Of a stretch of DNA of 21,412 nt, positions 3,692 to 21,412 are shown one piece after another. The notes below the pieces were generated by a model. The model ran no database searches. It saw only the letters and a program-made list of their open reading frames with translations, and had not been told where the DNA came from. Position numbers and translations under genes: made by a program. This DNA comes from a virus (Duplodnaviria; Heunggongvirae; Uroviricota; Caudoviricetes), in the IMG/VR virus record IMGVR_UViG_2740892117_000010, positions 1 to 21,412 of that record; one strand, 5' to 3'. Within the stretch, counting starts at the first letter, position 1. Every line of letters starts with the position of its first letter.

Positions 3692-3758
3692 AACCCCACC
3701 TCGCAGATGCGGGTGCTGTGTAATGGAAATAAAAAGGCCACCTGACGTGGCCACCAGA

Positions 3759-5189: not shown

Positions 5190-5283
5190 GACATACCAAT
5201 AACTCTTGTCTAAAAATCCAGCAAGATAAAAAGTCAGTATTCACGACCACCAGCGTGTTTACTGTACTGCACCAAGTTTACAG

Positions 5284-5311
5284 GTACAAAAAACCCGCTC
5301 AGTGGCGGGTT
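5284..5311 (-). terminator. tR-prime-like intrinsic terminator downstream of the late promoter
   Basis: Minus strand reads AACCCGCCACTGAGCGGGTT followed by TTTTTTGT. Confidence 0.7.
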
Positions 5312-5357
5312 CTTAAATCTTATCAACGGTAGACATACAAAGCCCATCGTTGGGGAA

Positions 5358-5386
5358 ATCTTATCCATATTTTTTGAAAAATGCAA
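5358..5386 (-). promoter_or_regulatory. Late promoter (pR-prime-like), presumed Q-engagement region
   Basis: Minus strand TTGCAT - 17 nt - TAAGAT immediately downstream of the Q-like gene stop and about 45 nt upstream of the tR-prime-like hairpin. Confidence 0.6.
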
Positions 5387-5417
5387 GTATCATGTCGTCA
5401 TCTTCGGCGAAAATCAT

Positions 5418-6212: not shown

Positions 6213-7179
6213 GATCGATAAAACGAAATATCAGCTCCAGCTGGGAGCCATACTTCTCTTCAAATGCCACGGTATCCGCATGCAGCTCGTCGTGATGCTT
6301 TCTGCACAAAGGCAACACAAAAAGGTCATGCGCTTTTGTTCCCATTCCACCCTGACCGTGACCTATCAGGTGGTGGGGATCATCAGCGGGCTTTCCACAA
6401 CATGCACACGGCTGTGTCTTAACCCAGCGCGTGTACTTTTCATTAACCCAGCGGCGACGTTTTGGGCGTAACATAAAAGACTCCGGCGACTCCGGATCCA
6501 CTTTCAGCGCCAGCACCTTTTTCGCCTTATCCTGGATGATGCTGGTGGCAGGAACCGAAGGCACAAGGTCACTTTCCCGGGTAACAGACGGCACAACAGG
6601 CTTCGGTAATCTCAGTGCCTTACGGGCTGCACTTTCCGGTAAGGCATCCGCCAGATCATTACGAATCAGCCACCAGCACAGTTCCGGCATTGTCACAACG
6701 TGACTGTCATCAAAACCGAGATCCCGACGCACAACAGACAACACCCAGCGGGCACAGTTATCCGTTGCCATTGATTCCAGCCGTTCCGTGAACTGATCGC
6801 GCAGCTGGTTATCGCAGTGCCAGCACAGACGGATTGCACCCGGAGCGTGTCGCATTGTGGTCATGTTCTCGCTGTGCCAGTCGGAATGAGGCCACTGGCA
6901 GCCTTTTTCACGAAGTAACCAGCTTTCAAGACATTCCACGCCACCAGCACGACGGATCACTGCCTCATTGCGGAACACGGCCCGAACGGCAGGATCATCC
7001 GCCAGCGGTTGTGATGCCGCCGGAACGGCACCACTGGCGAAAGATGAATAACGCTCCGGCTCAGGCTCCAGCAGGACACGCCCCTGCATAAACAGGGGCA
7101 TCAGCTCTGAACCTGGCCTGAACAATACGATCCCCATACGCGGGGCAATTTCAGGGGTCAGTAGTGCTCTCACGGTCAC
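6184..7179 (-). CDS. DUF968 / YdfU-like protein with C-terminal HNH-like motif
   Basis: C-terminal CACCGKPADDPHHLIGHGQGG...CRKHHDELH resembles an HNH/zinc-finger nuclease motif; lies upstream of Q as ydfU does in the Qin prophage (from memory). Confidence 0.65.
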   Translation of the reverse strand: MTVRALLTPEIAPRMGIVLFRPGSELMPLFMQGRVLLEPEPERYSSFASGAVPAASQPLADDPAVRAVFRNEAVIRRAGGVECLESWLLREKGCQWPHSDWHSENMTTMRHAPGAIRLCWHCDNQLRDQFTERLESMATDNCARWVLSVVRRDLGFDDSHVVTMPELCWWLIRNDLADALPESAARKALRLPKPVVPSVTRESDLVPSVPATSIIQDKAKKVLALKVDPESPESFMLRPKRRRWVNEKYTRWVKTQPCACCGKPADDPHHLIGHGQGGMGTKAHDLFVLPLCRKHHDELHADTVAFEEKYGSQLELIFRFIDRALAIGVLA

Positions 7180-7180
7180 C

Positions 7181-7978
7181 TCAATGAACGGTATCGAGCA
7201 GCTTTAACAGCTCAGGGAATCGGGATTCGAAGAAATGCGGCTGCGTCTCGCGCGGATTTGCGGGACTGGTGATGTTCTTGCCGAACATGCAGCCTTTCGC
7301 TGTCAGCGACCAGAATTTTTTGATGTTGTTAATCGCGGTACGGCTGTATCGTTCGCGCTGCTCGACGATCCCCAGCTTCACCATCTGGTGATATGCCTGA
7401 TTAGCTGTCAGGCGGATACCATACTGCTTCAGCAGTGCACTCAGTGACAGCGTGGGGCGGCTTGAGCCATCAGGCGCGTCAGCAGGAGCATCAATGGCAT
7501 AGCGCGGTGCCAGATTCGGTAAGCCAACAGCCTCCTGGAGTTTCTGACAGGCACCAAGCACTGAAGAGTTAGACAGGTTTAATTCCCGGCGCATAAAGTC
7601 CAGCAGAATCACACCAGCCTGCATCTTGTCAGCAGCCTGTCCGGATAATTTTTCCGGTGCGCTGGTTACCATGTCGAAAGTACGGATCACCTTCAGATGG
7701 AATGACGGGCTGATCCACATTGCATAGGCATACACCAGTTCTTTGCAGACATACGTCCCCTGGTTATTTCCGCCACGAATAACGTTAACTGGCTCTATAT
7801 TGACCGAGTTGCAAATCTGCAACTCGCTTATTAAACGTTCAGTTTGCTCATTGCGGAGCCAGAATGCAGGCTTATGCTTATCCAGAGAACCGGCAGCCCT
7901 GTGCAGATCGTTCAGGCTGTAACGACCATAAGCATCACGACGAACTTCAATACCATCAATGACCATCAGATTATTCAT
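7181..7978 (-). CDS. KilA-N domain protein
   Basis: N-terminal IDGIEVRRDAYGRYSLNDLHRAAG...KPAFWLRNEQTERLISEL is characteristic of the KilA-N DNA-binding domain. Confidence 0.7.
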   Translation of the reverse strand: MNNLMVIDGIEVRRDAYGRYSLNDLHRAAGSLDKHKPAFWLRNEQTERLISELQICNSVNIEPVNVIRGGNNQGTYVCKELVYAYAMWISPSFHLKVIRTFDMVTSAPEKLSGQAADKMQAGVILLDFMRRELNLSNSSVLGACQKLQEAVGLPNLAPRYAIDAPADAPDGSSRPTLSLSALLKQYGIRLTANQAYHQMVKLGIVEQRERYSRTAINNIKKFWSLTAKGCMFGKNITSPANPRETQPHFFESRFPELLKLLDTVH

Positions 7979-7997
7979 ACTTCGTTTCTCCTCTTAA

Positions 7998-8387
7998 TCA
8001 GGCGGCTGCACCCGCCGGTTTCTCATACTTACTGATAGTGATCTCGACCTTCCCTTTCGGGATAACCGGTCCCCACTCCACCAGCATTCTTTTCACCTGA
8101 CTGTCGTCTTCCCACACCCCCGCGTGGGTCAGGGCGTCAAACAGCGCCTTGTTATAGTTGTCCAGATCGCGGATCCGGTTATCCGGAGGAAACAACACGA
8201 TCTCCACTGAAGCAGGTGCCGACGTTGGTTTCGGCAGGCGACGTAACTGCTCAACTATTGCTGCGCACGCCGCGCTCTGGAATTTGCGCCCCGCTGCGCT
8301 TATCAGACTCTTACCAGCAAACGCCCCTTTGTTGGGGTGTCGCCAGTACGTGTTCACGCTGGGCGGAAAAGGCAGGATCAGCTTCAT
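7998..8387 (-). CDS. rusA: Holliday junction resolvase RusA
   Basis: Conserved RusA signature (PPSVNTYWRH..., DLDNYNKALFDALTHAGVWEDDSQV). Confidence 0.9.
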   Translation of the reverse strand: MKLILPFPPSVNTYWRHPNKGAFAGKSLISAAGRKFQSAACAAIVEQLRRLPKPTSAPASVEIVLFPPDNRIRDLDNYNKALFDALTHAGVWEDDSQVKRMLVEWGPVIPKGKVEITISKYEKPAGAAA

Positions 8388-8710
8388 ACTTTCAGGCCCC
8401 TCTCATGTAACCAGTGGGCTGCACGCAGCCTGGCGTTTTCCTCACCGGCAAGCAGTGCGCGGATAATCCCGACCGCCTCGCTGTCGTCGTCCTTCACAGC
8501 GGTATGAAGCGTTATCCCCCGTGCCACGCCACGCTTTATCGTGATGACGCCTTTTTTCTCCAGTGCGCGAAGATGCTCCACCGCTGCATTCACCGAACGG
8601 TATCCCAGCATGGTTGCCACCTCCTGATTGGTTGGCGGAAAGCCACGCTCTTTCTGGTAAGAAATCAGCATATCCAGCACCTGCTGCTGGCATTGAGTTA
8701 ACGTCGTCAT
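8384..8710 (-). CDS. LexA N-terminal DNA-binding-domain protein (no peptidase domain)
   Basis: LTQCQQQVLDMLISYQKERGFPPTNQEVATMLGYRSVNAAVEHLRALEKKGVI parallels the LexA N-terminal wHTH as remembered; 108 aa, lacking an S24 domain. Confidence 0.75.
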   Translation of the reverse strand: MTTLTQCQQQVLDMLISYQKERGFPPTNQEVATMLGYRSVNAAVEHLRALEKKGVITIKRGVARGITLHTAVKDDDSEAVGIIRALLAGEENARLRAAHWLHERGLKV

Positions 8711-9360
8711 GCCGCCATCTCCCTGACCAGTTTTTCCGCCTGCTGGCGAACCTGCACCAGAAAGGCTTCACCACATGCCTCAAGTTCATCGCGCCCGATG
8801 TAGCTGATTGCCGGTCCCTTCCAGGTCTTGTCGAAAACAGCAATAGCACCAGCGAAGAAAGCGCCTGTCGGCACCTGCTTCTCATCCTTCGGGATAAACC
8901 AGGCAGGCAGTTCAAAACCAATACGCCCGCGAATAAAAGCAATATGGTCCGCATCTTCCGGCCACCACACTTCGCTGGTGGCAGCTTTGATCAGGAAAAC
9001 ATAGCGCCCGCCCTTATCACGCATGGCACTGGCATGTTTCATGATGTAACGCATGCCGGTGATGTATTGTCCCTCATGCTGACTGGCGCGGCTGTATGGG
9101 GGATTACCAAAGGCAGCACCTTTAAGCTCCGCAAGACGTTCTGACCAGTCATGCGCCAGCGCGTTATCTTCCGCCGTGTAATACGCGGCACATTTGGCGT
9201 TATCACCGTCAGTAAACAGATCCAGAACAAACGGGCCAAACAGGGTGTTAATTCCCCAGAAAATGTTGTCCGGCGTGCGCCACTGATCGCCCACTTCCTT
9301 CAGTTCATGGGCTGGTTTGTTCCGCAGTTCCACCAGCGCCTGGCAATATTTATTACTCAT
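8707..9360 (-). CDS. Phage Dam-like N6-adenine DNA methyltransferase, orphan
   Basis: Contains GNPPYS motif; ATG at 9360 overlaps the upstream stop (TAATG). The ORF-track start at 9393 is a likely extension. Confidence 0.8.
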   Translation of the reverse strand: MSNKYCQALVELRNKPAHELKEVGDQWRTPDNIFWGINTLFGPFVLDLFTDGDNAKCAAYYTAEDNALAHDWSERLAELKGAAFGNPPYSRASQHEGQYITGMRYIMKHASAMRDKGGRYVFLIKAATSEVWWPEDADHIAFIRGRIGFELPAWFIPKDEKQVPTGAFFAGAIAVFDKTWKGPAISYIGRDELEACGEAFLVQVRQQAEKLVREMAA

Positions 9361-9854
9361 TAAGCCCCCACGTAATTCCCTGACAGATACCACTCTTCAC
9401 CCGATGCAGCGCGCTTGCTGCTTTTCCGTAAACACCGCTCACGACGCGCAAGAAAATTGTTTCGCTCTTGCTGGGAGTGGCTTTCACGGAATGCCGCCAT
9501 CCACACCGTTGCAGCACGACGGTATAAGCCCCTGGACTCCAGTTCTTCCGCCTGGCGGGTCAGGCATAAAATCACCCGGGGATCGTTAGTGCCGACATAG
9601 AAATTGCGCACAGATCTGGTTTCTCGAACTGGTTGTGGTTCCGGTTCCTGCGCTCTCTCAGTCAGGCGCGGAAAATGTCTGCGTGTATCTCCTTCACAAC
9701 GGTGAGCCACACGCCCACTCTGACGTAACTTGCTTGCAGACTGCAGAACGCGCTGCCGTGAGTAACCTGCAAAAGCATCCGCAATGTCTCCGGAAGTACA
9801 CCCCGGATGGGCTTCAATGAATTTCTGAACGTCATTCAAAAGACTCATGATCAC
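9360..9854 (-). CDS. PerC-like transcriptional regulator (putative)
   Basis: C-terminal GLYRRAATVWMAAF resembles the PerC-family motif; N-terminal half looks wHTH-like; start overlaps the O stop (ATGA). Confidence 0.5.
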   Translation of the reverse strand: MIMSLLNDVQKFIEAHPGCTSGDIADAFAGYSRQRVLQSASKLRQSGRVAHRCEGDTRRHFPRLTERAQEPEPQPVRETRSVRNFYVGTNDPRVILCLTRQAEELESRGLYRRAATVWMAAFRESHSQQERNNFLARRERCLRKSSKRAASGEEWYLSGNYVGA

Positions 9855-10792
9855 CCCCTGAATCCTGCCGGGATCTGGCTGTAGTCCACGTTGTCGTAAC
9901 TGGATTTGAAGTACGGGTCTTCGCGTTTTTCGGTGTACGTGCTGACGGACGGCGATAAGCGCAGGGAAAGCTCATCCCATTTTTCCCGCAACTTCGACGG
10001 GCTGAGCACGTTACGGCACCAGAACGGATCGCGGCTGACGCGGCTGTACATCTCGCAGATTTGTTTGTGAGTACGACCATCCTGCACACACATCAGGCGA
10101 ATTTCGTTTGCCCAGGCTGTCCAGTTCGGTTCTTTGGGACGAACCACCTCGCCGTCACATTCGGCGGCTTGCTCGTACAGGGCGATGATTTTTTTCCAGA
10201 GCCACTGTGCGCAGGTCAAATCATCCTGCGTTCCCCACTGGCGCTTTTTAGGGCTGAATACAACCGCATCAGGATGGCGAGTTAAAAAATCCTGTTCATC
10301 CGTCTGCGTGTCCGGTTGCGAAGCGTCCGGACGAGAAGGTTTTTTATCTGACGGATCATGTTTTGATTTTACTGACGGATCCCCGCCAGATTCTGACGGG
10401 TGAAAACCCGCTTTTTTGCCAGATTTCGACGCATCAAATTTTGACGGGTCAGATTTTGATGCGTCAGATTTTGACTGGTCAGAATCTGACAGTTGAGAAA
10501 ATGCCGCTGCCTGAAGCTTCGCAACGTTAAGCTGATAAACATTCGACGCATTGCGGTTACCCTGGCGACGCGCCTTACGCGTTAACCAGCCTTCTGCTTC
10601 CAGCCGTGCGATAGCCGTTCTGACGGTACTCATCCCCGCGCCAATCTGACGGGCAATGGTTTCAATTGATGGCCAGCACACACCTTCGTCATTACTGAAA
10701 TCAGCCAGGCGGGCCATAATTGCCACGCTGGATAATTTCATGCCTGATGCAGCGCAACCATCCCATACATAGCCGGTTAATTTAGTGCTCAT
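9851..10792 (-). CDS. Replication initiator, O-like (N-terminal HTH, Ser/Lys/Asp-rich linker encoded by ori iterons)
   Basis: N-terminal wHTH typical of phage replication initiators; ATG at 10792 with GAGG Shine-Dalgarno; iterons within the coding sequence as in lambda O. Confidence 0.8.
   Translation of the reverse strand: MSTKLTGYVWDGCAASGMKLSSVAIMARLADFSNDEGVCWPSIETIARQIGAGMSTVRTAIARLEAEGWLTRKARRQGNRNASNVYQLNVAKLQAAAFSQLSDSDQSKSDASKSDPSKFDASKSGKKAGFHPSESGGDPSVKSKHDPSDKKPSRPDASQPDTQTDEQDFLTRHPDAVVFSPKKRQWGTQDDLTCAQWLWKKIIALYEQAAECDGEVVRPKEPNWTAWANEIRLMCVQDGRTHKQICEMYSRVSRDPFWCRNVLSPSKLREKWDELSLRLSPSVSTYTEKREDPYFKSSYDNVDYSQIPAGFRG
10350..10495. repeat. Origin iterons (about 7 copies of a 12-bp unit, tCAGATTTTGAC-like) inside the O-like gene
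   Basis: Direct repeats ccagattctgac, ccagatttcgac, tcaaattttgac, tcagattttgat, tcagattttgac, tcagaatctgac at roughly 15-bp spacing. Confidence 0.8.
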
Positions 10793-10801
10793 GACCGACC
10801 T

Positions 10802-11140
10802 CTACTTCCCTGAATTTACGACGAAACTGTTCGAGCGGGCTGAAGCACTCATGCTCATAGCCTTCGCGGAGGTAGATAACCCGTTGTGTTTCCGGCTCCC
10901 AACGAATGACTCTGACGGGCACTCCGTAGTGATCTTTGAACCAGCGGTTAACTTGTCGCAAAGGACTGTCTCCTTCTGCCGGTTGAAATCACCCACAGCC
11001 CACTCTGCAAAGCTGTGGGTTACAATTTCCCTGTCACCTGGTACATTTACTGCATAGCAATACTCCACCTTCGCTTTTCCACCCGGTACAGGAAGTGCAA
11101 TCAGTTGCGAGCGACGGTAGTGTGTTGTTAAACTGTTCAT
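10802..11140 (-). CDS. Small hypothetical protein between the cII-position gene and O; frame uncertain in its 3' half
   Basis: ATG at 11140 overlaps the upstream stop (ATGA). The C-terminal half is Ser-rich and low-complexity, while an alternative frame over 10795-10990 reads protein-like ([52 protein letters not shown]). Confidence 0.35.
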
Positions 11141-11706
11141 GCGTTAGTTTCTCCACAACCAGAAGCAATCGACGCCACGACGCCCGGAGCTGCACACTCG
11201 CGGGCGTCATTACTTTCTGAAATGCAAAAAATTTTGTAGACAAGTGCTGCATGCTCCTGCAGCTTCGAAATTGAGAGATACAGCTCGTCGTTAATTGCTG
11301 TCTTCTCATGCGGTTCCACTACACCGTCTTCGATTGCTGAACGAATCTGTTTTGAATAACTGCCGATCTGTTCAATGACTTCCAGCAGACGCTGGTTAAT
11401 ATCGGCGTTGTCCACATCCTCGACGTCAGGAAGAGACACAAAGACGCCATTTGCAGACTGCGCCACAGCATCAGCAATGAAGTGAGTTCCACCAGCACGT
11501 TGCAAAATCATTGCCCATCCCAGCGGGAAAATCTGATCGCCATCAGCACGAAGGCGGTTAAATAATGCGTTCTCTGTTACATCCAGCCAGTCAGCTGCTT
11601 CAGCGTAACCACCCGGCAACTTTGCGATAGTTTTTCTGACAGCTTTCACGTACCACTCAGGCTGTTTTTCTACTTTCCAGTGATGCTTACCCACGGTTAG
11701 CCTCAT
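11137..11706 (-). CDS. Hypothetical early-operon protein at the cII position (start uncertain: 11706, 11748, 11760 or 11808)
   Basis: ORF immediately downstream of cro on the pR-side operon; no motif I can assign; a GTG with GAGG Shine-Dalgarno lies just after the first in-frame candidate. Confidence 0.5.
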
Positions 11707-11731
11707 CGTTCTGTGGTTTCTGTTAATCGAT

Positions 11732-11932
11732 TTATCCATTAGATTTTTCATAAAGCTCAGGTTTAAATGGCAACCGTCCGCAAGTTCTATATGCAGCTTC
11801 TGCTGCACGTCCTTTTGGAATTAACTGGCCCGGACGGTTTCGCCACTGATAAACGGCTTCAGTTGTTATGCCGAAAAAAGCAGCAACTTTCTCAATACTG
11901 CCGAAGTAGCTTTCGATATCGTCAGTTGTCAT
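11732..11932 (-). CDS. cro: Cro-like HTH repressor
   Basis: 66-aa HTH protein divergently transcribed from cI; FFGITTEAVYQWRNRPGQLIP is HTH-like. Confidence 0.75.
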   Translation of the reverse strand: MTTDDIESYFGSIEKVAAFFGITTEAVYQWRNRPGQLIPKGRAAEAAYRTCGRLPFKPELYEKSNG

Positions 11933-12029
11933 ACGCCCTCCAAACTAAGTTTTATTAGATGCTAATTACAAATCTATCTTTGGTCAATAAAAACTAAGAT
12001 TACTTAGCAATTCAAGAAATGGTGCTCCT
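11933..12029. promoter_or_regulatory. Right operator region (pR / pRM with operator half-sites)
   Basis: Divergent cI-cro intergenic region with AACTAAG motifs at 11944 and 11992 and the inverted pair ACTAAGATTACTTAG. Confidence 0.55.
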
Positions 12030-12656
12030 ATGGAAACGGTTGGTCAGCGTATAAAAGCTCTGAGAAGAGTTACCAGAACGTCCCAGAAAGAATTGGGTAA
12101 ATTTTGTGGAGTAAGCGACGTTGCTGTGGGGTACTGGGAGAAAGACATCAATACCCCTGGTGGGGAGGCACTTTCGAAATTAGCGAAGTTCTTCAATACG
12201 TCAATAGATTACATTCTTTATGGTGCTGAGTTTGAAGGCAAACTCGTCACAAACATGCGCAGAGTTCCTGTAATATCGTGGGTTCAGGCTGGGCAGTTTA
12301 CTGAGTGCAGGGCAGCAGAAGTGTTTAGTGAAGTGGACAAGTGGGTAGATACATCATTAAAGATTGGTGATAACTCATTTGCATTAGAGGTTAAAGGTGA
12401 CTCCATGACTAACCCTAATGGCCTCCCAACAATACCAGAAGGCGCAACAGTGATTGTAGATCCAGATGCAGAACCTCGTCATGGAAAAATAGTCATCGCT
12501 CGACTTGATGGAACAAACGAAGCTACAGTAAAAAAATTAGTCATCGATGGCCCTCAAAAGTTTTTAGTGCCATTAAATCCTCGGTATCCCAACATCCCTA
12601 TCAATGGTAATTGCCTTATCATTGGTGTAGTCAAAGGAGTTCAATACGAACTCTAA
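12030..12656 (+). CDS. cI: CI-type prophage repressor (HTH-XRE N-terminal domain + LexA-like S24 peptidase domain)
   Basis: N-terminal HTH (QKELGKFCGVSDVAVGYWEKD); C-terminal S24 signatures (KGDSM serine motif, catalytic Lys region VKKLV). Confidence 0.9.
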   Translation: METVGQRIKALRRVTRTSQKELGKFCGVSDVAVGYWEKDINTPGGEALSKLAKFFNTSIDYILYGAEFEGKLVTNMRRVPVISWVQAGQFTECRAAEVFSEVDKWVDTSLKIGDNSFALEVKGDSMTNPNGLPTIPEGATVIVDPDAEPRHGKIVIARLDGTNEATVKKLVIDGPQKFLVPLNPRYPNIPINGNCLIIGVVKGVQYEL

Positions 12657-12840
12657 GACCTCTCTTCTCTAACTAAGGCACCGAACTAAGAAAAGTTTGG
12701 TGTTTTCTCTTGCCATAATAACTAAGTTAAGTTAGATTTTATGTCAAAGATAACGAACAGGCAGGACGCCCACGAAGTAGCCGCCGGTGGCGTATGAATG
12801 ACCGGATGATTCGTTAAATACTATGTGTAAGAGAGCGCAA
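12657..12840 (+). promoter_or_regulatory. Left operator / pL-like promoter region
   Basis: TTGCCA (12709-12714) - 17 nt - TAGATT (12732-12737); AACTAAG motifs at 12670, 12683 and 12719, matching those in the cI-cro intergenic region. Confidence 0.5.
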
Positions 12841-13043
12841 ATGAACCGTTATTTCACATGCTCGTTTTGTGGCGCAAACGAGCTGCAGGCAAAAAAATCA
12901 TCGCCAAAGGCGGAAAAGATGAAGTTGCTATCTGCTCTGAGTGCGTAGTCTTGTGTGTCGGAGCATTAATCAATATCAGCACAACTATTCAGTTCACACC
13001 AAATGAGAATGCGCCTTTAGATGCGCGGAAATCTGGAGGTTAA
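12841..13043 (+). CDS. ClpX-type C4 zinc-finger small protein, reading frame broken at an A7 run (12891-12897)
   Basis: Frame 1 from ATG 12841 gives MNRYFTCSFCGANELQAKK; frame 3 continues IIAKGGKDEVAICSECVVLCVGAL. Together they recreate the ClpX N-terminal zinc-binding motif (CSFCG ... ICxECVxLC). One extra A would give a single ~67-aa ORF. Confidence 0.6.
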
Positions 13044-13051
13044 AGAACAAA

Positions 13052-13327
13052 ATGAAAGTCCAGATTTTAAACAATAGTGGTGAAGTCGTTTGGTCATACG
13101 ACATAGCCGCTCCTGTAGATCAGAGCGGCGATAGCTGGACCAATGGGAAACATCAGATTATGGCTGGAGTTGTATTCTCTTTACACCGTGCTTTGGAACA
13201 GGCTGAAGTATTTCCATCAGACCCTGAATGGAAATGGCCTTTTTCTATTTGTCCAAATTCGGAGAGCACATTTCAGAAAATTGGTCAGAAAGTCGCACTC
13301 GAAGAGCATCAGCCAACTGTTTTCTGA
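13052..13327 (+). CDS. Hypothetical protein (91 aa)
   Basis: ATG at 13052 with GGAGG 13 nt upstream; 3' end overlaps a convergent ORF, so the C-terminus is uncertain. Confidence 0.45.
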   Translation: MKVQILNNSGEVVWSYDIAAPVDQSGDSWTNGKHQIMAGVVFSLHRALEQAEVFPSDPEWKWPFSICPNSESTFQKIGQKVALEEHQPTVF

Positions 13328-13490
13328 TTTTTTCAGGTAACTCGTCGGCATCGCAGAAACAACAACGCTCGATCATGTTGAAAGCCGATTCGTAGAACTG
13401 TTTCTGCTGAGTGTCGCTGAGACAGGAAAAGAGCGACGTTACGATGATTTTATTAATTGCATTATCAAGTTCTTTTTCATCAAAAGTCAT
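13245..13490 (-). CDS. Hypothetical protein (81 aa)
   Basis: ATG at 13490 with AAGGA Shine-Dalgarno; helical, charged composition; convergent with the 13052 ORF. Confidence 0.45.
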   Translation of the reverse strand: MTFDEKELDNAINKIIVTSLFSCLSDTQQKQFYESAFNMIERCCFCDADELPEKIRKQLADALRVRLSDQFSEMCSPNLDK

Positions 13491-13743
13491 TTGATTTTCC
13501 TTTTATGTATACGGGCTTAAAAGGATACCACCGAGCCTGAAGTGGTGAAAAGACAGGCACATAACAGCTAAGTATTTTCAACCAGAGAGAATCCTTAGCG
13601 TTGTGGTGAATGCGGCTCAGCGCACGCGGGTTAAGGTTGAGGCTGACAGTCGACCTTCTGTGGATACCCACCCGTCTGGTGTGCAACCTTCGCCAGGCAC
13701 CGGGAGGCACCCGGCACCACAACTTTATGCTGTGTGTAGTCCT

Positions 13744-13790
13744 GGCGGTACCAGTTTGTACCCTTGCTTCCGGCTGGTACCGCTCTTTTT
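13744..13790 (+). terminator. Strong intrinsic terminator (10-bp GC-rich stem + TCTTTTT) in the pL-side operon
   Basis: GGCGGTACCAG ... CTGGTACCGC followed by TCTTTTT. Confidence 0.65.
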
Positions 13791-13927
13791 ACAAAACAGA
13801 GAAGAGCATCACCGGACGACGGGCTCATAACCCAATCCATCCGGGCGGCTGCCACCGCAGGTGTTCTTCTCTGTTTTGTGGAGAAACCAACCGACCTTGC
13901 AGGGTCGATATGATGAGGAGCAGCAAA

Positions 13928-14290
13928 ATGGCTAGCGAACGCAGTACTGATGTGCAGGCATTTATCGGGGAGCTGGACGGCGGCGTATTTGAAACCAAAA
14001 TCGGCGCAGTTCTCAGTGAAGTCGCTTCCGGTGTGATGAACACGAAAACCAAAGGTAAGGTCTCGCTCAACCTGGAAATCGAACCGTTTGATGAGAACCG
14101 TGTGAAAATAAAACATAAACTCTCATATGTTCGCCCGACTAACCGCGGGAAAATTTCCGAAGAAGACACCACCGAAACACCGATGTATGTCAATCGCGGT
14201 GGTCGCCTGACTATTCTGCAGGAAGACCAGGGACAATTACTGACTCTTGCCGGTGAACCTGACGGAAAACTCCGCGCAGCAGGTCATTAA
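13928..14290 (+). CDS. yfdP: YfdP-like protein (120 aa)
   Basis: ATG at 13928 with GAGGAG Shine-Dalgarno; length and position upstream of a YfdQ-like gene match the CPS-53 yfdPQRST module as remembered. The ORF-track N-terminal extension reads as junk. Confidence 0.65.
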   Translation: MASERSTDVQAFIGELDGGVFETKIGAVLSEVASGVMNTKTKGKVSLNLEIEPFDENRVKIKHKLSYVRPTNRGKISEEDTTETPMYVNRGGRLTILQEDQGQLLTLAGEPDGKLRAAGH

Positions 14291-14354
14291 TATCGTTTTT
14301 AATTAACTGATTATTTATCTCATCACTGAATATTTTATATAGTGAGGACTGATT

Positions 14355-15179
14355 ATGTCTCAGAACTTAGACGCAACCGCAATTAATCAAATCCATGCCC
14401 TTATTTCTGCTCAGGGTGTTAATGAAATTATCAGTAAGATTGGTGCCGATGCTGTGGCATTGCCTGAGAATTTCCGCATTCATGATCTGGAAAAATTTAA
14501 TTTAAATCGCTTCCGTTTCCGTGGTGCGCTTTCCACTGCCAGCATCGATGACTTTACCCGTTATTCTAAAGATCTTGCAGATGAAGGCACCCGCTGCTTT
14601 ATCGATGCTGATAATATGCGTGCCGTCAGTGTGCTTAACCTGGGTACTATTGATGAACCAGGTCACGCAGATAACACCGCCACTCTCAAACTGAAAAAGA
14701 CAGCACCGTTCTCTGCCCTGTTGTCTGTTAACGGCGAGCGTAACTCCCAGAAGTCACTGGCAGAATGGATTGAAGACTGGGCCGACTACCTTGTGGGCTT
14801 TGATGCTAATGGTGACGCCATTCAGGCAACCAAAGCTGCTGCGGCGATCCGTAAAATCACAATTGAAGCGAACCAGACCGCTGATTTTGAAGATAATGAC
14901 TTCAGCGGCAAACGCTCCCTGATGGAGTCTGTCGAAGCGAAGACCAAAGACATTATGCCTGTGGCATTTGAATTTAAATGCGTTCCGTTTGAAGGTCTGA
15001 AAGAACGTCCGTTTAAATTACGCCTCAGCATTATCACTGGCGATCGTCCTGTACTGGTTCTGCGCATTATTCAGCTGGAAGCGGTGCAGGAAGAAATGGC
15101 TAACGAATTTCGTGATCTGCTTGTTGAGAAATTCAAAGACAGCAAAGTAGAAACCTTTATTGGTACTTTCACCGCCTGA
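14355..15179 (+). CDS. yfdQ: YfdQ-like DUF2303 protein (274 aa)
   Basis: Length and synteny with the CPS-53 module; clean ORF with Shine-Dalgarno. Confidence 0.7.
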
Positions 15180-15306
15180 TTTCATTACTGCAAATGCCCC
15201 TGCGGGGGCATTTATGGAAACGTAATTAACTCAATAATCACCGGATGGTGAGGGCTTCCTTTTACCAGAATTCAGCGCGGTGCAGTGCATATACGTGGAG
15301 AATAAA

Positions 15307-15843
15307 ATGTCATTTATTAAAACTTTTTCCGGGAAGCATTTTTATTATGACAAGATAAATAAAGACGACATCGATATTAACGATATCGCGGTTTCCCTTT
15401 CAAATATCTGTCGCTTTGCCGGTCATCTTTCGCACTTCTACAGCGTCGCCCAACATGCGGTTCTTTGCAGCATGCTGGTGCCGCAGGAATTTGCTTTTGA
15501 AGCGTTAATGCATGATGCAACAGAAGCGTATTGCCAGGACATCCCGGCTCCACTGAAACGCCTTCTTCCTGACTATAAACGGATGGAAGAAAAAATAGAC
15601 GCCGTAATCCGTGAGAAATACGGGTTACCCCCGGTTATGAGCACGCCCGTGAAATATGCCGATCTCATCATGCTGGCAACCGAACGCCGCGATCTCGGGC
15701 TTGATGATGGCTCTTTCTGGCCTGTACTGGAAGGTATCCCGGCAACAGAGATGTTCAAAGTGATTCCACTGTCGCCAGGCCATGCCTATGGGATGTTTAT
15801 GGAACGTTTTAACGAGTTATCGGAGTTACGCAAATGCGCATGA
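15307..15843 (+). CDS. yfdR: YfdR-like HD-domain protein (178 aa; putative 5'-deoxynucleotidase)
   Basis: ATG at 15307 with GGAG Shine-Dalgarno; H..HD-like metal motif (ALMHDATEAY); length matches YfdR. Confidence 0.7.
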   Translation: MSFIKTFSGKHFYYDKINKDDIDINDIAVSLSNICRFAGHLSHFYSVAQHAVLCSMLVPQEFAFEALMHDATEAYCQDIPAPLKRLLPDYKRMEEKIDAVIREKYGLPPVMSTPVKYADLIMLATERRDLGLDDGSFWPVLEGIPATEMFKVIPLSPGHAYGMFMERFNELSELRKCA

Positions 15844-16196
15844 ATGTTTTCGAAATGGAAGGGTTTCTTCGCGGGAAATGTGTACCGCGAGATCTGAAAG
15901 TGAACGAAACAAATGCTGAGTACCTAGTACGTAAATTCGACGCGCTTGAAGCTAAATGTGCGGCACTGGAAAACAAAATAATACCAGTGTCAGCTGAACT
16001 GCCACCTGCAAATGAAAGTGTTCTGTTATTTGATGCTAACGGAGAAGGCTGGCTAATTGGCTGGCGTTCTCTCTGGTACACCTGGGGACAAAAAGAAACC
16101 GGAGAATGGCAGTGGACATTTCAGGTCGGGGACCTTGAAAACGTCAATATCACTCACTGGGCAGTAATGCCGAAAGCACCGGAGAATAAGAAATGA
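15834..16196 (+). CDS. yfdS: YfdS-like protein (120 aa)
   Basis: Overlaps the yfdR-like stop; length and synteny match YfdS. Confidence 0.65.
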   Translation: MRMNVFEMEGFLRGKCVPRDLKVNETNAEYLVRKFDALEAKCAALENKIIPVSAELPPANESVLLFDANGEGWLIGWRSLWYTWGQKETGEWQWTFQVGDLENVNITHWAVMPKAPENKK

Positions 16197-16408
16197 GCGT
16201 GATAAAAACTCATACAGGAATTGTTATTACCCGAAACGGTCCGCAGGTAAAAAAACTGCACCAGACAAAGCGGATGTGGGTCGTCGGAGAAAACGAGTTT
16301 TACCACAAAGAAACCGGACGCCGCCACTTTGCAGAAAATACGCGCCGCCGACTGCTCCTGGACAGCATCAGGCCAATTAAACAGGTAGCAACCAGAGAAC
16401 AAAATTAA
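16193..16408 (+). CDS. Small hypothetical protein (71 aa)
   Basis: ATGA overlap with the upstream gene; basic small protein. Confidence 0.5.
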   Translation: MSVIKTHTGIVITRNGPQVKKLHQTKRMWVVGENEFYHKETGRRHFAENTRRRLLLDSIRPIKQVATREQN

Positions 16409-16469
16409 TTATCAGGACTGAAATTTGATATTACTGCCCGTGTGCAGCGGGTTAAGTGGAGAAACAGCC

Positions 16470-16679
16470 ATGGCAAAACTAATGAAAGCGAGCCAATGGG
16501 GACGCCGTGAATTCTCTAATGGCTCAATTCCTGACAACCGAACGATAAAACGCTGGGTCGAGAACGGTCTGCTCATGGGGCGTATAGTGGACGGTTCTGT
16601 TTTTGTCTGCGAAACAGAAAAATGGGGAGTCGACTCAATGGTTAGTCAAGCTGTTCGCAAGTTAATAAATGAGGGATGA
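16470..16679 (+). CDS. xis: Excisionase (lambda Xis-like)
   Basis: About 69-aa basic protein with a TIKRWVENG...DGSVFVCE pattern like lambda Xis (RRWVRE...DGREYLF); stop overlaps the int start (ATGA). Confidence 0.7.
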   Translation: MAKLMKASQWGRREFSNGSIPDNRTIKRWVENGLLMGRIVDGSVFVCETEKWGVDSMVSQAVRKLINEG

Positions 16680-17860
16680 CCATGGCGGCAAGGCCACGTA
16701 AAAAAGAATACAGACATCTTCCTGATTATCTGGTTTTTGATAAAGATCGAGGTGTTTATAAATTCACACTTATTACCGGAAAAAAGAAAAATATAGGTAA
16801 GGATCGGGCAATAGCCGTTGCAATCGCCAGAGAGTACAACCTGAGGATGCGATCAGAATTATACCCATCAGTGGATAATCTTATTAGAGAATCTGGCGGG
16901 GTCACCGGAGAAGCAAAACCATTTGCTGAACATGTCGATCACATAATGGCCAGAATTATCGAAGACGAACGACCTTCCCAGAGTACCTTAGATGACTGGA
17001 AAAATGACGCTCTACGCGTAAAAGCATTTTTCGTAAATGTTCCGGCATGCGATATCGAACTTGAACACGTTAATGCCTACATCAACAAATATCATGCCAG
17101 CGCATCCGCAAATGTGCAGAACAGAAAGGTCAGCTTTCTTAAAAAGTTGTTCTCTTATGCGGTCGATGAATCACTAATGCAGGATAACCCGGCCATCAGA
17201 AAAAAAATGCGTAGGACTGATGAGAAGAAAAGACGGCGCCTGTCACTCGAGCATTTTATAGCTATCAGGCAGGCCGCTGCACCATGGTTAAGAACAGCAA
17301 TGGACCTAGCATTGCAGACTACACATGCACGACTCGAAGTATCGCGAATCCGTTACTCAATTCGCGAACCTAAAGACGGTTTATGTGGATGTGTTTGGTT
17401 CGAACAACCACAAAATGGCATATATGGTACACTATACATCCATAGGCAAAAAGTACAAAAAAAGGAGGCATCACATGTTGCAATACCAATTGGTGAAGAA
17501 TTGAAACGGATAATTGACAATAGCCGTGACAATGTGGCCAGTCCCTTTGTCGTTCATAGAATCCCAGAACGGCATGTTAAACGCAGTAAAGAGGTTTCGC
17601 ACCCAACTCAAGTTGCACCAGATTATTTGAGTCGGTCATTCTCTTCCGTGCGAGACAAACTCGGACTATGCAATCATCTAGCAATGGAACAAAGACCTAC
17701 ATTCCATGAAATAAGAGCTTTGGCAGCTCACCTATTTGATAAACAAGGGATTGATCCGCAGGGACGAATGGCACATAGCGATGCGAAATCTACTAAAATT
17801 TATACTAAAAATCATATAGATTGGATTGTTGTCCCTCATGGAGAAATTAAAACCGGTTAG
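16676..17860 (+). CDS. int: Tyrosine integrase, lambda Int family
   Basis: N-terminal arm-binding-like region; C-terminal catalytic region parallels lambda Int (PTFHEIRALAAHLF vs PTFHELRSLSARLY, then H...Y). Confidence 0.9.
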   Translation: MTMAARPRKKEYRHLPDYLVFDKDRGVYKFTLITGKKKNIGKDRAIAVAIAREYNLRMRSELYPSVDNLIRESGGVTGEAKPFAEHVDHIMARIIEDERPSQSTLDDWKNDALRVKAFFVNVPACDIELEHVNAYINKYHASASANVQNRKVSFLKKLFSYAVDESLMQDNPAIRKKMRRTDEKKRRRLSLEHFIAIRQAAAPWLRTAMDLALQTTHARLEVSRIRYSIREPKDGLCGCVWFEQPQNGIYGTLYIHRQKVQKKEASHVAIPIGEELKRIIDNSRDNVASPFVVHRIPERHVKRSKEVSHPTQVAPDYLSRSFSSVRDKLGLCNHLAMEQRPTFHEIRALAAHLFDKQGIDPQGRMAHSDAKSTKIYTKNHIDWIVVPHGEIKTG

Positions 17861-17997
17861 TTATTAAATTCTCCACTTTATTTTGACTGACAATAACGGT
17901 TGCTAAGGCATAGAGTAAAGCTTAATTTAAAAGGCAGTTCTATGCCCATTTACCATAACTCCTCCCTTGTCCAGAAAGCAATATTTATTAATAAAAT

Positions 17998-18954
17998 TTA
18001 TTTACCCTTATTATACTCTTCAGTAATCTTATTCATGGATGATATATATTTATCCAGCCCACCATAGTTGGCTATCATTCGAAATGAATTACGGTACTCT
18101 GCCATTTTCACATCATGATTAGTAATTCCACACCAGCCACAAACTTTATTTTCCATGTTTAAAGGCTCATAACATTTTTTACATTGCCTTGATGCAGGTA
18201 TTATATTGCCATTAATAAATTGGTGTGATTTGAGATTTTGAGATAAAAGAAATGGTGTAGTTGTTGTTTTTCCTATTACCATTTCGAAATATCTACATTT
18301 AGCCTTTTTAGCTAAAGATTGAATTTTCTGCTTTAATAAATCATTTGATTTGTGCCCAACTATAACTCCAGTTATACAATTAATCGGTACCGGAAGGAGC
18401 ATAAGATTGTCATTCAGTTTAGTAAGTGCTTTCTCATTAATTATTACGCGACGTTCCTGCTCATAACTCCAGCAAGTTTGTTTTGTCAAATATGCGGCTG
18501 TCATTATACAGGATTGTAGCCAGTAGATATAACGAGGTTTACAGATATGAAATGCTCTCGCCAGAATGTCTTCAATACCTGTATCTGGAGAATCTTTATA
18601 TTCAACATCTGCTATTGAACTATGATCCTGGAAGCCGATTTCATCCAAATACTTTTTAAACTTCTCCTCATTAATCTCTATTACAAAACCAGAAGAATTA
18701 CCTGCATAATGTGCCCACATAGGTGGTATCACAGGGCTTTTCGTAAAACAAGTTGCTGGTTGTTTTGTAACCATGCCAATCATTTCATTGTAAAATGCTA
18801 ACTCATCAGAACCGCGATTAAAATCAATAGTAAGGAAAAACTCATAGGGATCATTATATTCATGTAAATGAGAGAATTTTATTCCTATATGTGTTTCATC
18901 CATCATCAATTTATCAATTATATCCGCTCCCATAAACTTATACAAATTGGTCAT
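17998..18954 (-). CDS. DUF2971-like protein with C-terminal CxxC...CxxC zinc ribbon; AT-rich cargo gene
   Basis: ATG at 18954 with AAGGAG Shine-Dalgarno; N-terminal NLYKF...FSHLHEYNDPYEF resembles the DUF2971 signature as remembered; C-terminal CKKCYEPLNMENKVCGWCG; markedly AT-rich versus flanks. Confidence 0.6.
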   Translation of the reverse strand: MTNLYKFMGADIIDKLMMDETHIGIKFSHLHEYNDPYEFFLTIDFNRGSDELAFYNEMIGMVTKQPATCFTKSPVIPPMWAHYAGNSSGFVIEINEEKFKKYLDEIGFQDHSSIADVEYKDSPDTGIEDILARAFHICKPRYIYWLQSCIMTAAYLTKQTCWSYEQERRVIINEKALTKLNDNLMLLPVPINCITGVIVGHKSNDLLKQKIQSLAKKAKCRYFEMVIGKTTTTPFLLSQNLKSHQFINGNIIPASRQCKKCYEPLNMENKVCGWCGITNHDVKMAEYRNSFRMIANYGGLDKYISSMNKITEEYNKGK

Positions 18955-19050
18955 ATACAACTCCTTTTTTATAAAATAACATTTTAAATCATATGATTAT
19001 GGAGGCACAAAATCCAGTAATTAGTTTTCAAGCCGGTTGTGATGTAGTTC

Positions 19051-19403
19051 GAGGACAAACTGAAACGTATTATTGATAACAGTCGCGATAACGTTGCCTG
19101 CCCGTATATCGTTCACCGTATACCGAGCGTAATAACAAACGCAGTAAAGAGGTATCCGCACCTGCCTATCTTAGCCATACTTTTCATTGCCCCGTGATTC
19201 GTTAGGCTTGTGTAATAATTTGACGATGGAGCTGCGCCCCCACATTCCACAAAATACGCGCACTAGCTGCATTTTGTTTGATAAACAGGGAGTAGACCAC
19301 AAGGGCTCATAGCCCACAGCGACGCGAAATCAACGAAAATTTATACGCGGAACCATATGATTGGGTAATGCTTCCGCACGGTGAAATTAAATACAATGCA
19401 TAA
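19051..19403 (+). pseudogene. Decayed 3' remnant of a second lambda-family integrase
   Basis: Roughly 70 percent nucleotide similarity by eye to int 17497-17860 (KLKRIIDNSRDNVA..., ...PHGEIK), with frameshifts and premature stops. Confidence 0.75.
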
Positions 19404-19437: not shown

Positions 19438-19821
19438 TTAGGACGCTTTAGACTTGGTCATATTAGCGCAACGCTGGATTAATTTCTCTGCAGTCTTAAT
19501 CGCGGTGCTTGATTGGGTTGGCGTAATAGTGTCGTTAAGTCTGTAATCACAAACTATTCTCTGATCCTTAAGCGATTGAAGAGCATACCCCAAACCAATT
19601 AAGTCTCTTTTTTCAAAAGGTTCGTTACCCTTCCAAGCATCGTTAACAAGATAGTCAATGAGGCCTTGGTGACTTTCTTTCGGCCCCATGGTCAAACACG
19701 GAAGTACGTGGTGATAAGCACCATAATACGCACGTGCGACAGCGTTTCTGTAACCAATTTCGTCGTTACGCTTTTCACAATCTTTTGCGAAAGCGATAAA
19801 ATCGGAACTATTAACTGGCAC
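19438..19821 (-). CDS. Hypothetical protein (127 aa from GTG 19821; 144 aa if TTG 19872), possible HEPN-like helical fold
   Basis: GTG at 19821 with GGAGGA 8 nt upstream, overlapping the upstream stop; RAYYGAYHH has R-x6-H spacing but family assignment is speculative. Confidence 0.55.
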   Translation of the reverse strand: MPVNSSDFIAFAKDCEKRNDEIGYRNAVARAYYGAYHHVLPCLTMGPKESHQGLIDYLVNDAWKGNEPFEKRDLIGLGYALQSLKDQRIVCDYRLNDTITPTQSSTAIKTAEKLIQRCANMTKSKAS

Positions 19822-20578
19822 GCGCAGGTTCCTCCAAACGCCCTTCAAACCATACGCTGAAGGGTTTTCCAATCAAACTTTCATTTTCTGCAAGAGAAAA
19901 TGCTATATCCAAGTTCATATCAGAGAGAACATCAGAATCTTCAGTATTAACTGCCATGACATATGATGACGTACGCTCTTCAGGGATAGAGCAGAAAGAC
20001 ATAGCAACAGGACTAACTTTATGGTCAGCCATGATATCCACTATGCGGTTTGCAATATCCTGTAGTTCTTCATCAGTAATTCCAGTTGCACTTTTGAAGG
20101 TCGTGGATTGGGCCAGTGCTGTGGCTGCGAGGTGCTTAACCAATTCAGCCTCCTTTTCATCTACCATACTTATCAATCTCTCAGCATAGTAGAGCGCTTT
20201 GTCAATACGCCCCAAGAACAAGTTAGCTTCCCATGCATGGGACAGCATCGTAGGGGAGTTATAACGTTCAACTAATCGATTTACCACTTGTTCAACTTCA
20301 CGGAAGCTGCCGTAATCGTTGAGATAAACTACATAATTTTGAGCAATGATCAGGTTGTTATGCTTCAATGCTTCTTCAAAGAATGCAACTGCAGTATCTT
20401 TACGCCCAAAAGCACCATTAGCCAACGCTTTGAGATAGTCCTCAGATGCGCTGTCGCGCAACTTTTCTATATCTCTGATATAACGAAAATATTGCATTTC
20501 GGATATCGTATTCCGAGCCGCAAGAATATCGATTAATTCACTGCTGATTTCGTTCGCTTTTAGCGCCGGCTGTGGCAT
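19811..20578 (-). CDS. Hypothetical alpha-helical protein (255 aa), first gene of a two-gene operon
   Basis: ATG at 20578 with AAAGGTGA Shine-Dalgarno; TPR-like helical composition by eye; no catalytic motif recognised. Confidence 0.6.
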   Translation of the reverse strand: MPQPALKANEISSELIDILAARNTISEMQYFRYIRDIEKLRDSASEDYLKALANGAFGRKDTAVAFFEEALKHNNLIIAQNYVVYLNDYGSFREVEQVVNRLVERYNSPTMLSHAWEANLFLGRIDKALYYAERLISMVDEKEAELVKHLAATALAQSTTFKSATGITDEELQDIANRIVDIMADHKVSPVAMSFCSIPEERTSSYVMAVNTEDSDVLSDMNLDIAFSLAENESLIGKPFSVWFEGRLEEPARAS

Positions 20579-20802: not shown

Positions 20803-21012
20803 AAAGCATATTAGAAGCAAATCAAAAAGTGCTATAGACGGAACCTATTAATATAGTAATGCTCCAAAAACTGACCATTTAGGAGTGGGGAAAAATCTCT
20901 CTTAACTCATTGATGTATATAGCGTGAATTTTGCGAATTATGCACTGTTTGCGCACACAGTGAAACACCCTGCCAGCCCAGCAATGGCGCGGTCTCCAGC
21001 GTTTCAGGCGCG

Positions 21013-21062
21013 GTGACATGGGGTGTCGGGGGTCGGAGGTTCAAATCCTCTCGTGCCGACCA
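21013..21062 (+). other. att core: 3' fragment of tRNA-Pro (proL-like; anticodon arm to CCA), not a complete tRNA
   Basis: ...ATGGGGTGTCGGGGGTCGGAGGTTCAAATCCTCTCGTGCCGACCA matches the remembered proL 3' half (T-arm, acceptor 3' strand, CCA); no complementary 5' acceptor strand (CGGCACG) upstream. Confidence 0.75.
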
Positions 21063-21074
21063 AAAATCCCAAGA

Positions 21075-21163: not shown

Positions 21164-21412
21164 TCAGAACGTCCAGACCACACCCGCCTGAGTTGTGCTG
21201 CTTTCTTCACGGGAGAAACGGCTGTCGATACCAAGCGTTAGCCCCGTCAATGTTTGCTCAAAGCCAGCGCCTGCATCAGTGGTCACGTTGTTGCGGCTGT
21301 TAATTGCCGAACTCCACATCGCCGTATCGTAATTAACGCCTTTTACGCTACCAAGACGCCCACGCACGGTGTCCAGTTCTGCATCAAATACCAGCGGTTG
21401 TGCTGCCGCCAT
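21164..21412 (-). CDS. Host outer-membrane/autotransporter-like protein, C-terminal fragment (yejO-like; continues beyond window end)
   Basis: Beta-strand-like alternating pattern ending in a terminal aromatic (...AGVVWTF); convergent with tRNA-Pro as yejO is beside proL in E. coli K-12 (from memory). Confidence 0.45.
   Translation of the reverse strand: MAAAQPLVFDAELDTVRGRLGSVKGVNYDTAMWSSAINSRNNVTTDAGAGFEQTLTGLTLGIDSRFSREESSTTQAGVVWTF

Follow-up and report, generated by a model that had tools for sequence, protein, structure and literature searches.

A prophage DUF2971 gene of Escherichia coli with a clade-specific zinc-ribbon extension encodes a predicted ADP-ribosyltransferase and candidate phage-defence factor

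Overview

The DNA analyzed here (the window, 21,412 nucleotides of IMG/VR record IMGVR_UViG_2740892117_000010) is part of a lambdoid Escherichia coli prophage that occupies proL, a tRNA-Pro gene, with yejM on one side and yejO/narP on the other. Beside the prophage integrase lies a gene for a 318-residue DUF2971 protein (positions 17998..18954, minus strand). The predicted fold of this protein is that of an ADP-ribosyltransferase (ART), and the structural model argues strongly that the nucleic-acid-modifying ARTs DarT and Tpt1 are the closest known folds. We lean, by a modest measure, towards the view that the gene product is an NAD+-dependent ART with which the prophage blocks superinfecting phages by acting on nucleic acid or another essential target, and that a C-terminal extension of the protein replaces an antitoxin.

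Several elements of this picture are already known, and the advance is incremental: RefSeq labels the protein as DUF2971, earlier work predicts an ART in this family and counts it among defence candidates, and one member has been validated. What is new is the DarT/Tpt1-like structural assignment for this clade, for which the model gives strong support; a rare zinc-ribbon extension that is structurally orphan and exclusive to the clade; evidence that the gene hops between slots; and a corrected reading of an integrase remnant that a preliminary description of the window, made from the sequence alone, had taken for a duplicated int.

The DUF2971 gene, its composition and its conservation

The coding sequence, identified from the ORF list and supported by its match to Pfam PF11185 and by dN/dS, specifies 318 residues from the ATG and ends with a stop codon at 17998-18000 (minus strand). 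An alternative TTG start two codons 5' of the ATG would give 320 residues in the ORF list. Direct reading of the sequence places a Shine-Dalgarno motif, AAGGAG, 6 nt 5' of the ATG (18961..18966, minus strand), so the 318-residue minus-strand frame with its ribosome binding site stands as it was preliminarily described. In identical genomes the product is annotated by PGAP as 'DUF2971 domain-containing protein' (WP_000183538.1).

The gene has a GC content of 0.333 (GC3 0.273), whereas the window has 0.470 and positions 1-17860 have 0.484, and no 957-bp stretch of the window is lower in GC; the marked AT-richness relative to the flanks that had been noticed at first sight is thus borne out by the comparison of GC values. 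The gene sits in an AT-rich block (GC 0.328; 17861..19050, no strand assigned) that extends from the int stop codon to the start of the integrase relic. An allele from Klebsiella aerogenes, 82% identical at the amino acid level and with dS of about 1, is equally low in GC (0.336), which indicates that the composition belongs to the gene and not to the host. The dN/dS of the gene is 0.07 against a diverged E. coli allele and 0.10 against the K. aerogenes allele. The gene is clearly under purifying selection, and these values rule out a decaying pseudogene.

Signals for transcription are less distinct. A consensus scan gave a weak terminator-like hairpin with a T-run about 50 nt 3' of the stop codon (17932..17947, minus strand), and the number of such sites near the gene is not higher than in shuffled sequences. 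The promoter scan around the gene returned 11 sites, with 11.2 expected from shuffled controls, and no convincing sigma-70 promoter upstream of the gene. The AT-rich DNA around the gene may allow silencing in the lysogen.

Membership in the DUF2971 family

The protein matches Pfam PF11185 (DUF2971) in hmmscan with an E-value of 1.8e-9 and 39.3 bits, the gathering score being 22. The match spans residues 79-170 (18445..18720, minus strand), from MWAHY to YEQERRV, and covers the whole model (1-89 of 89). The preliminary description had proposed this family and had let its reading hang on a DUF2971 hit; the hit was found and the proposed family is the correct one. All 40 of the 40 aligned homologues match the same model. 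The protein also matches PHROG 1762, a group of unknown function (E 1.8e-33), and a search of NCBIfam with it gave no match.

A search of 5.8 billion proteins yielded 48 full-length homologues with 33-99% identity, all of 303-348 residues except one of 276. Their hosts belong to Enterobacterales, Pseudomonas and Rhizobium; some are non-pathogenic, and some are bacteria of plants or soil. In the alignment of 40 homologues the invariant residues of the N-terminal half are S28, N34-D35-P36, E38, C69-F70, P78-M79-W80-A81-H82-Y83, K139 and R141; these are followed by K158, W162, Y164-E165-x-E167-(R168)-R169 and G200, and, within the zinc ribbon, by C258, C261, E263-P264, C272 and W274-C275.

To this alignment we added a set of four DUF2971 proteins of 258-267 residues that possess the core only, from plasmids of Klebsiella, Enterobacter and Comamonas and from phage Cyrano (20-29% identity). 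N34, D35, P36, M79, W80, H82, Y83, Y164, E165, E167 and R169 are invariant in these proteins as well, and the residues conserved family-wide are NDP, MWxHY, K158, W162, YExE and G200. All three hallmarks, NDPxE, MWxHY and YExE[RV]R, are present in the 318-residue protein. The NLYKF/NDPYEF segment, which the preliminary description had likened to a DUF2971 signature, is indeed conserved across the family, though it lies upstream of the Pfam model. The fold common to DUF2971 proteins, an ART-like core with a small alpha/beta subdomain, corresponds to residues 1-238 (18241..18954, minus strand). SSU5-like phage-plasmids and phage Cyrano carry DUF2971 genes of the core-only type, and DUF2971 genes are common on plasmids (527 records in a tblastn search with the 318-residue protein). 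Coverage of the query reaches 80% in only 8 of the 527 plasmid records; in the others the alignment is confined to residues 1-~215.

Association with defence systems

All five PADLOC models of the candidate system PDC-S31 match the protein (E 4.9e-22 to 6.8e-7), over residues ~3-228 only. The 145 PDCs are candidates drawn from genes that lie within BREX, DISARM and type I restriction-modification (R-M) loci (bioRxiv 10.1101/2024.01.29.577857). PDC-S31 is likewise a single-gene DUF2971 candidate tied to defence loci; however, its models stop at the core and do not include the zinc-ribbon extension, and its genes come from within such loci, whereas the E. coli gene lies in a prophage slot between int and att.

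A second link is to Aristaios (pUCCL641_199), a 316-residue DUF2971 protein from a Lactococcus plasmid with validated phage resistance of the abortive type (Grafakou et al. 2024, PMC11381338). Aristaios blocks phage transcription and has a predicted ART fold (PMC11381338, PMC13064643). No other DUF2971 defence has been validated by experiment. The likeness between the two, known from family, fold and length, consists of a single gene on a mobile element, 316 versus 318 residues, DUF2971/PF11185 membership and a predicted ART fold; Lactococcus is absent among the matches listed in the plasmid search with the 318-residue protein. The PDC-S31 match and the family held in common with Aristaios agree with the earlier suggestion of a defence effector, at the level of a candidate. 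Of the refuting outcomes named in the preliminary description, none of those open to computation was seen.

The prophage end at proL

The intact tyrosine integrase of this proL-integrating lambdoid prophage (16676..17860, plus strand) is recognized by its Arm-DNA-bind_1 domain, by weaker integrase-domain matches in Pfam and by PGAP. On the other side of the DUF2971 gene lies the 3' relic of an integrase (~19040..19403, plus strand), which PGAP annotates in identical genomes as a frameshifted, N-terminally truncated recombinase pseudogene. The position of the gene between an intact int and an int 3' pseudogene therefore agrees with the preliminary description. The origin proposed there for the remnant does not: the relic is only ~70% identical to the adjacent int at the DNA level, with indels and frameshifts, which rules out a duplication of int and marks it as the remains of another integrase related to it. 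A search of 5,426 complete E. coli genomes gave no intact parent of the relic, the best other matches being 68-76% identical.

Two further genes (19438-19821 and 19811-20578) separate the relic from the attachment site in E. coli. The att core, consisting of the 3' part of proL plus 8 nt (21017..21071, plus strand), lies at the prophage end that adjoins yejO and is recognized by its identity to proL of strain J2; it equals the 3' part of the intact J2 gene, and the 5' part differs. The window holds one copy of this core. ARAGORN reported no tRNA in the window, and in a manual alignment no more of proL than its 3' part is present there. Strain J2 retains just the two downstream genes, the rest having been lost in an IS1-associated deletion, and strain T309.Ta3 has the whole arrangement in diverged form, with IS903B inserted after int. 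The two genes were considered as partners in a common system and rejected, since the relic intervenes, the Klebsiella module lacks them and they stand alone in J2.

The AT-rich block was matched in 53 of the 5,426 complete E. coli genomes, in 52 of them at >=99% identity and as one unit; among the carriers are ST131 strains and isolates from animals and food. An int allele at >=99% identity is likewise found in 52 genomes, and the listed genomes that were cross-checked carry both. In Klebsiella the order is int, DUF2971 and, ~360 nt further, a 3' fragment of tRNA-Pro with the att core seen in the window, without the relic or the extra genes. Since int-DUF2971-att is the native module in Klebsiella, it is more likely that int and the DUF2971 gene arrived together in E. 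coli, beside an older relic, than that the gene was inserted between int and the remnant, as had been proposed. The simplest reading is that int and the DUF2971 gene travel jointly as a phage end module, and that the relic and the two further genes are leftovers of an older proL occupant, joined to the module by recombination within int or by tandem integration followed by deletion. As a description of the present structure, a simple tandem integration of two phages was rejected because no second piece of att or tRNA separates the DUF2971 gene from the relic; a tandem array may have existed and been reduced by a later deletion.

Mobility and genomic contexts of the homologues

The interval between int and att is a variable cargo slot. 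Int alleles of 88-92% identity occur in 57 other genomes, of which three were read. Two of these lie at the same proL site and carry as cargo a 289-residue hypothetical protein or a pair of 283 and 66 residues; the third, in another neighborhood, carries DUF4760 and two paired genes, one of them for an ATPase that matches PADLOC AbiLi (E 1.6e-64) and AriA. Unrelated cargo in related intervals, including an AbiL/PARIS-like ATPase pair, bears out the int-adjacent hotspot of the preliminary description.

The genomic context of the gene was read in nine lineages. In E. coli and Klebsiella it lies between int and att of related prophages, and in P. syringae at a prophage edge, adjoining tail and lysis genes. 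The Morganella homologue is in the nin region, between Dam/Lar and NinG/Q and co-oriented with the early lytic operon, and the Edwardsiella homologue is between Q and holin. In Pantoea the gene occupies the variable region of a P4-like satellite. Other homologues have no phage nearby: that of Serratia is beside a type III R-M system and a SMEK protein, and that of P. asplenii is near AbiJ and DUF4917 genes. The Rhizobium homologue is chromosomal, in a 17-kb locus without phage genes and ~1.5 kb from a Trypco2-domain gene; its lack of a mobile-element context runs counter to a defence reading, as does the early-lytic-operon position in Morganella, which fits a phage-serving role equally well. 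In none of the nine contexts is there a conserved partner or neighbor, and the gene is always solitary, in keeping with its first description as a single-gene element. These contexts are evidence that the gene hops among prophage, satellite and defence-island slots. Horizontal acquisition, likewise suggested before, is supported by a GC content 14 points below that of the window, by the low GC in Klebsiella and by the varied slots across genera.

The same contexts bear on whether the protein serves the phage rather than the lysogen. Phages do encode ARTs for host take-over or counter-defence, as exemplified by Alt, ModA and ModB of T4, and an enzyme made during lytic growth or induction might modify host RNA polymerase, nucleic acids or a defence component. 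The Morganella and Edwardsiella positions, the latter between Q and the lysis genes, and the occurrence of core-only DUF2971 genes on SSU5-like phage-plasmids and phage Cyrano would suit such a role. We nonetheless consider it unlikely. The E. coli and Klebsiella genes adjoin att, converge with int and stand apart from the lytic operons, which is the classic position of a prophage-expressed gene; some homologues adjoin R-M and Abi genes with no phage nearby; members of the wider family lie inside BREX, DISARM and R-M loci; and the sole member of the family that has been tested is a host-protective Abi. Moreover, none of 50,697 phage records shows a full-length homologue on a strictly virulent phage.

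Predicted ART fold and putative active site

The AlphaFold model of the 318-residue protein, a structure prediction of the kind that had been proposed as a check, is of high confidence (pLDDT 90.9, pTM 0.82) and has a predicted ART fold. In structural comparisons the best-scoring matches are DarT of M. tuberculosis (8.5), yeast Tpt1 (8.0) and Thermus DarT (7.7), followed by Thermosipho DarTG (6.9), E. coli DarT1 (6.2) and Scabin (5.5). The first 12 matches are all ART-superfamily folds, with TreX, SopF, heat-labile enterotoxin and PARP15 also represented. The two best Foldseek matches are again DarT, weakly (E 0.015).

The kinship with these enzymes is one of fold. Structural alignments with DarT give 8-14% identity, no match to DarT (DUF4433) at E <= 1 occurs among the Pfam matches of the 40 members, and a PDB-wide profile search with the family alignment produced no match to DarT or any solved ART at E <= 10. 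Arf GTPases appeared in the profile search as chance matches (E >= 0.34) with only a PxWxHY string in common. DarT is an ART toxin acting on phage DNA and an established defence effector in E. coli; it lacks both the large helical inserts and the C-terminal zinc-ribbon extension of the 318-residue protein. Tpt1 is a housekeeping tRNA-splicing enzyme with an Arg-His-Arg-Arg catalytic tetrad, and Tpt1/KptA has no sequence similarity to the 318-residue protein and a different domain context. An ART-like toxin, CmdT of CmdTAC, is also known from E. coli phage defence (PMC9519451), but CmdT acts with an antitoxin and a chaperone, whereas the DUF2971 gene is solitary.

A 2025 survey treats DUF2971 as a modified H-Y-E ART whose nearest kin are DarT, AbiGi and Tox-ART-HYD1, with a poorly conserved motif I His, a strictly conserved motif II Tyr and an ExE as motif III (PMC12522546). 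The fold of our model and the family-wide H82-Y83 and E165-x-E167 agree with this description. From the sequence, motif I may correspond to the N-terminal strand L-Y-K-F (Y5-K6), where this branch has Lys or Gln, not His, at the candidate position, and motif II may lie in M-W-A-H-Y (H82-Y83). The putative catalytic motif III would be E165-Q166-E167 (18454..18462, minus strand), at the start of strand 167-171 in the model, a mapping that draws on conservation and secondary structure only and is in line with the survey (PMC12522546). The ExE is invariant in the 40 clade members and the 4 core-only relatives.

An ART fold could also support other chemistry, or none: the protein might deplete NAD+ as a glycohydrolase, act as a Tpt1-like RNA 2'-phosphotransferase, modify nucleic-acid ends, or be a binding protein without catalytic activity. 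Such a role would be compatible with the NAD+-consuming toxins of the RES/MbcT type lower in the list of structural matches, with Lys or Gln instead of His or Arg at the motif I position, and with the lack of a sequence-level match to a characterized ART. Still, it seems to us a poor bet. The ExE, H-Y and NDP motifs and several basic residues are invariant over 20-99% identity, which argues for an active site; the ExE motif is, in R-S-E ARTs, typical of transferases that act on macromolecules; and Aristaios acts specifically on phage transcription.

The C-terminal zinc-ribbon extension

The fold common to DUF2971 proteins reaches to about residue 238, and in the alignment residues ~239-318 are absent from the four core-only relatives. 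This clade-specific extension (residues 239-318; 18001..18240, minus strand) comprises a beta-hairpin, a zinc ribbon and three helices. Its four-Cys motif, C258-x2-C261...C272-x-W274-C275 with the invariant E263-P264 (18130..18183, minus strand), was defined from the alignment columns. The CxxC...CxxC ending noted in the preliminary description thus proves to be C258-x2-C261...C272-x2-C275, with none of the four cysteines varying among 40 sequences, the most distant of which has 33% identity, and the pLDDT of the region exceeds 90. No curated zinc-ribbon family scores above threshold (the best, DZR, reaches 15.3 bits against a cut-off of 27.3), and sub-threshold Pfam matches to DZR occur in 16 of the 40 members. 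For the last ~80 residues as a whole, no structural analogue was found.

The extension is rare. A profile of residues 197-318 found only 118 matches among 1.84 billion cluster representatives, and in every full-length match the module is at positions ~190-310 of a protein of ~300-335 residues. All ten of the most divergent or odd-sized carriers that were checked possess the DUF2971 core. The notion of the module as a swappable sensor on other effectors was therefore discarded, all full-length carriers being DUF2971 proteins. The two parts of the protein also differ in charge, residues 197-318 being basic (pI 9.6) and residues 1-196 having a pI of 5.1.

A proposed mechanism

The defence reading, which we favor, would work as follows. 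As a self-contained accessory gene ('moron') at the integrase end of the proL lambdoid prophage, the DUF2971 gene would be expressed from the prophage, and its product would shield the lysogen from other phages, through either abortive infection or superinfection exclusion. Once a phage infects, the enzyme would use NAD+ to ADP-ribosylate nucleic acid, or some other essential target, through a proposed catalytic set made up of the Y-K strand motif, NDPxE, MWAHY and YExERR, and phage transcription or replication would stall. DarT needs a separate antitoxin, DarG. A DarG macrodomain antitoxin gene is absent here, the neighbors being int, the int relic and two unrelated genes, and the nine contexts show no conserved partner; the basic zinc-ribbon/helical extension may instead be responsible for targeting, sensing or auto-inhibition.

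A more specific version of the defence reading is offered tentatively, as a possibility rather than an expectation: the protein would be a one-polypeptide, antitoxin-free relative of DarT in which the protein's own zinc-ribbon/helical module silences a nucleic-acid ART, senses a phage component or nucleic-acid structure and then releases the enzyme. It is, finally, improbable that the gene is a selfish or virulence gene with no role in phage defence, whether a prophage-stabilising addiction toxin or a secreted effector: a Legionella survey proposes the latter role for ~18% of DUF2971 proteins (PMC12522546) and core-only relatives adjoin partition and toxin-antitoxin genes on plasmids and phage-plasmids, but no conserved antitoxin or partner gene is present in the nine contexts, the N-terminus has by inspection no signal-peptide-like or hydrophobic segment, the hosts include non-pathogens and plant or soil bacteria, and the association with R-M, Abi and satellite hotspots would be left unexplained.

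Significance

If the defence reading is true, about 1% of sequenced E. coli, ST131 included, carry a compact, single-gene ADP-ribosylating immunity factor on prophages and satellites, and so do Klebsiella, Morganella, Pantoea and Pseudomonas. The large DUF2971 family, which spans thousands of species and of which one lactococcal member has been tested, would then gain a tractable model in E. coli. The question that the gene would raise is how a DarT-like toxin can be harmless without an antitoxin, and the clade-specific zinc-ribbon extension would be the obvious handle on that question. Should the auto-inhibited, one-polypeptide version prove true, it would represent prophage immunity with a new sensing principle.

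CRISPR-targeted operon between the integrase relic and att

The stretch between the integrase relic on one side and the att site on the other is occupied in the window by a two-gene operon, whose genes (19811-20578 and then 19438-19821, both on the minus strand) overlap by 11 nt and encode a 255-aa and a 127-aa protein, respectively. The 255-aa protein shows weak TPR-like matches and hits PHROG 17809 (E 3.7e-42), and the 127-aa protein matches PHROG 5176 (E 3.4e-29). Neither protein gave a Pfam hit above threshold or any match in a PADLOC search. In strain J2 an IS1-associated deletion has left the two-gene pair alone in place.

The operon is also a perfect target of spacers from native E. coli CRISPR arrays, identity having been checked base by base at one of the three sites. 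That protospacer (19968-19999) lies inside the gene at 19811-20578 and is identical to a 32-nt spacer of DH5alpha (K-12 lineage), GACGTACGCTCTTCAGGGATAGAGCAGAAAGA; on the protospacer strand it is flanked by ATG, a PAM that functions in type I-E systems. The other two spacer-matched sites lie at approximately 19552-19584 and 20101-20135, and spacers against the operon occur in about 21 genomes.

Right prophage end

The right prophage end of strain NC19 (NZ_CP076654.1, 8459-8536) carries a 78-nt 'tRNA-Pro' called by PGAP, the counterpart of window positions 20986-21063. Only its 3' ~47 nt match the genuine proL, the 5' half being unrelated, and ARAGORN called no tRNA in this sequence. The same sequence is without a tRNA annotation in both the window and locus L001 from another genome, and the NC19 feature is probably a mis-annotated att-site pseudo-tRNA. 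The chromosomal gene adjoining att, the autotransporter gene yejO (minus strand, 21164-21412 in the window; 23306-25897 in L001), is a pseudogene with an internal stop in genomes that carry this prophage.

DUF2971 genes in other mobile elements

A diverged copy of the window arrangement is found in strain T309.Ta3 (NZ_CP128255.1), where the order of int, DUF2971 gene (2752-3720), relic and two genes is the same and the stretch spanning the relic and the two genes is ~94% identical. The DUF2971 gene is intact despite an IS903B between it and int, with a dN/dS of 0.07 against the window allele.

Core-only DUF2971 genes (~265 aa, lacking the zinc ribbon) are carried by SSU5-like phage-plasmids of ~106-120 kb in Klebsiella, Enterobacter, Salmonella and E. 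coli, either adjoining ParA and a RelE/ParE toxin or with a DnaB helicase gene nearby; such genes lie at 1450-2253 in Escherichia phage Cyrano (OV696614.1) and at 1501-2298 in locus L022. A further homologue occurs in a P4-like satellite region of Pantoea agglomerans (CP134728.1, 4326-8783), flanked on one side by a DUF6650 gene and on the other by a 334-aa gene with no assigned function, beyond which lies a toxin-immunity-like RNase_A_bac/CdiI_2 pair. This satellite region looks like a multi-cargo variable region.

Defence cargo in the int-adjacent slot

In a prophage whose int is 88% identical to that of the window (NZ_CP116480.1), the int-adjacent slot (7567-10867) contains a DUF4760 protein together with part of a transposase and two paired proteins of 167 aa and 379 aa. 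The ATPase of this pair matches the PADLOC models for AbiLi (E 1.6e-64) and AriA/PARIS (E 3.9e-33). The pair represents an already known type of defence that occupies the same hotspot.
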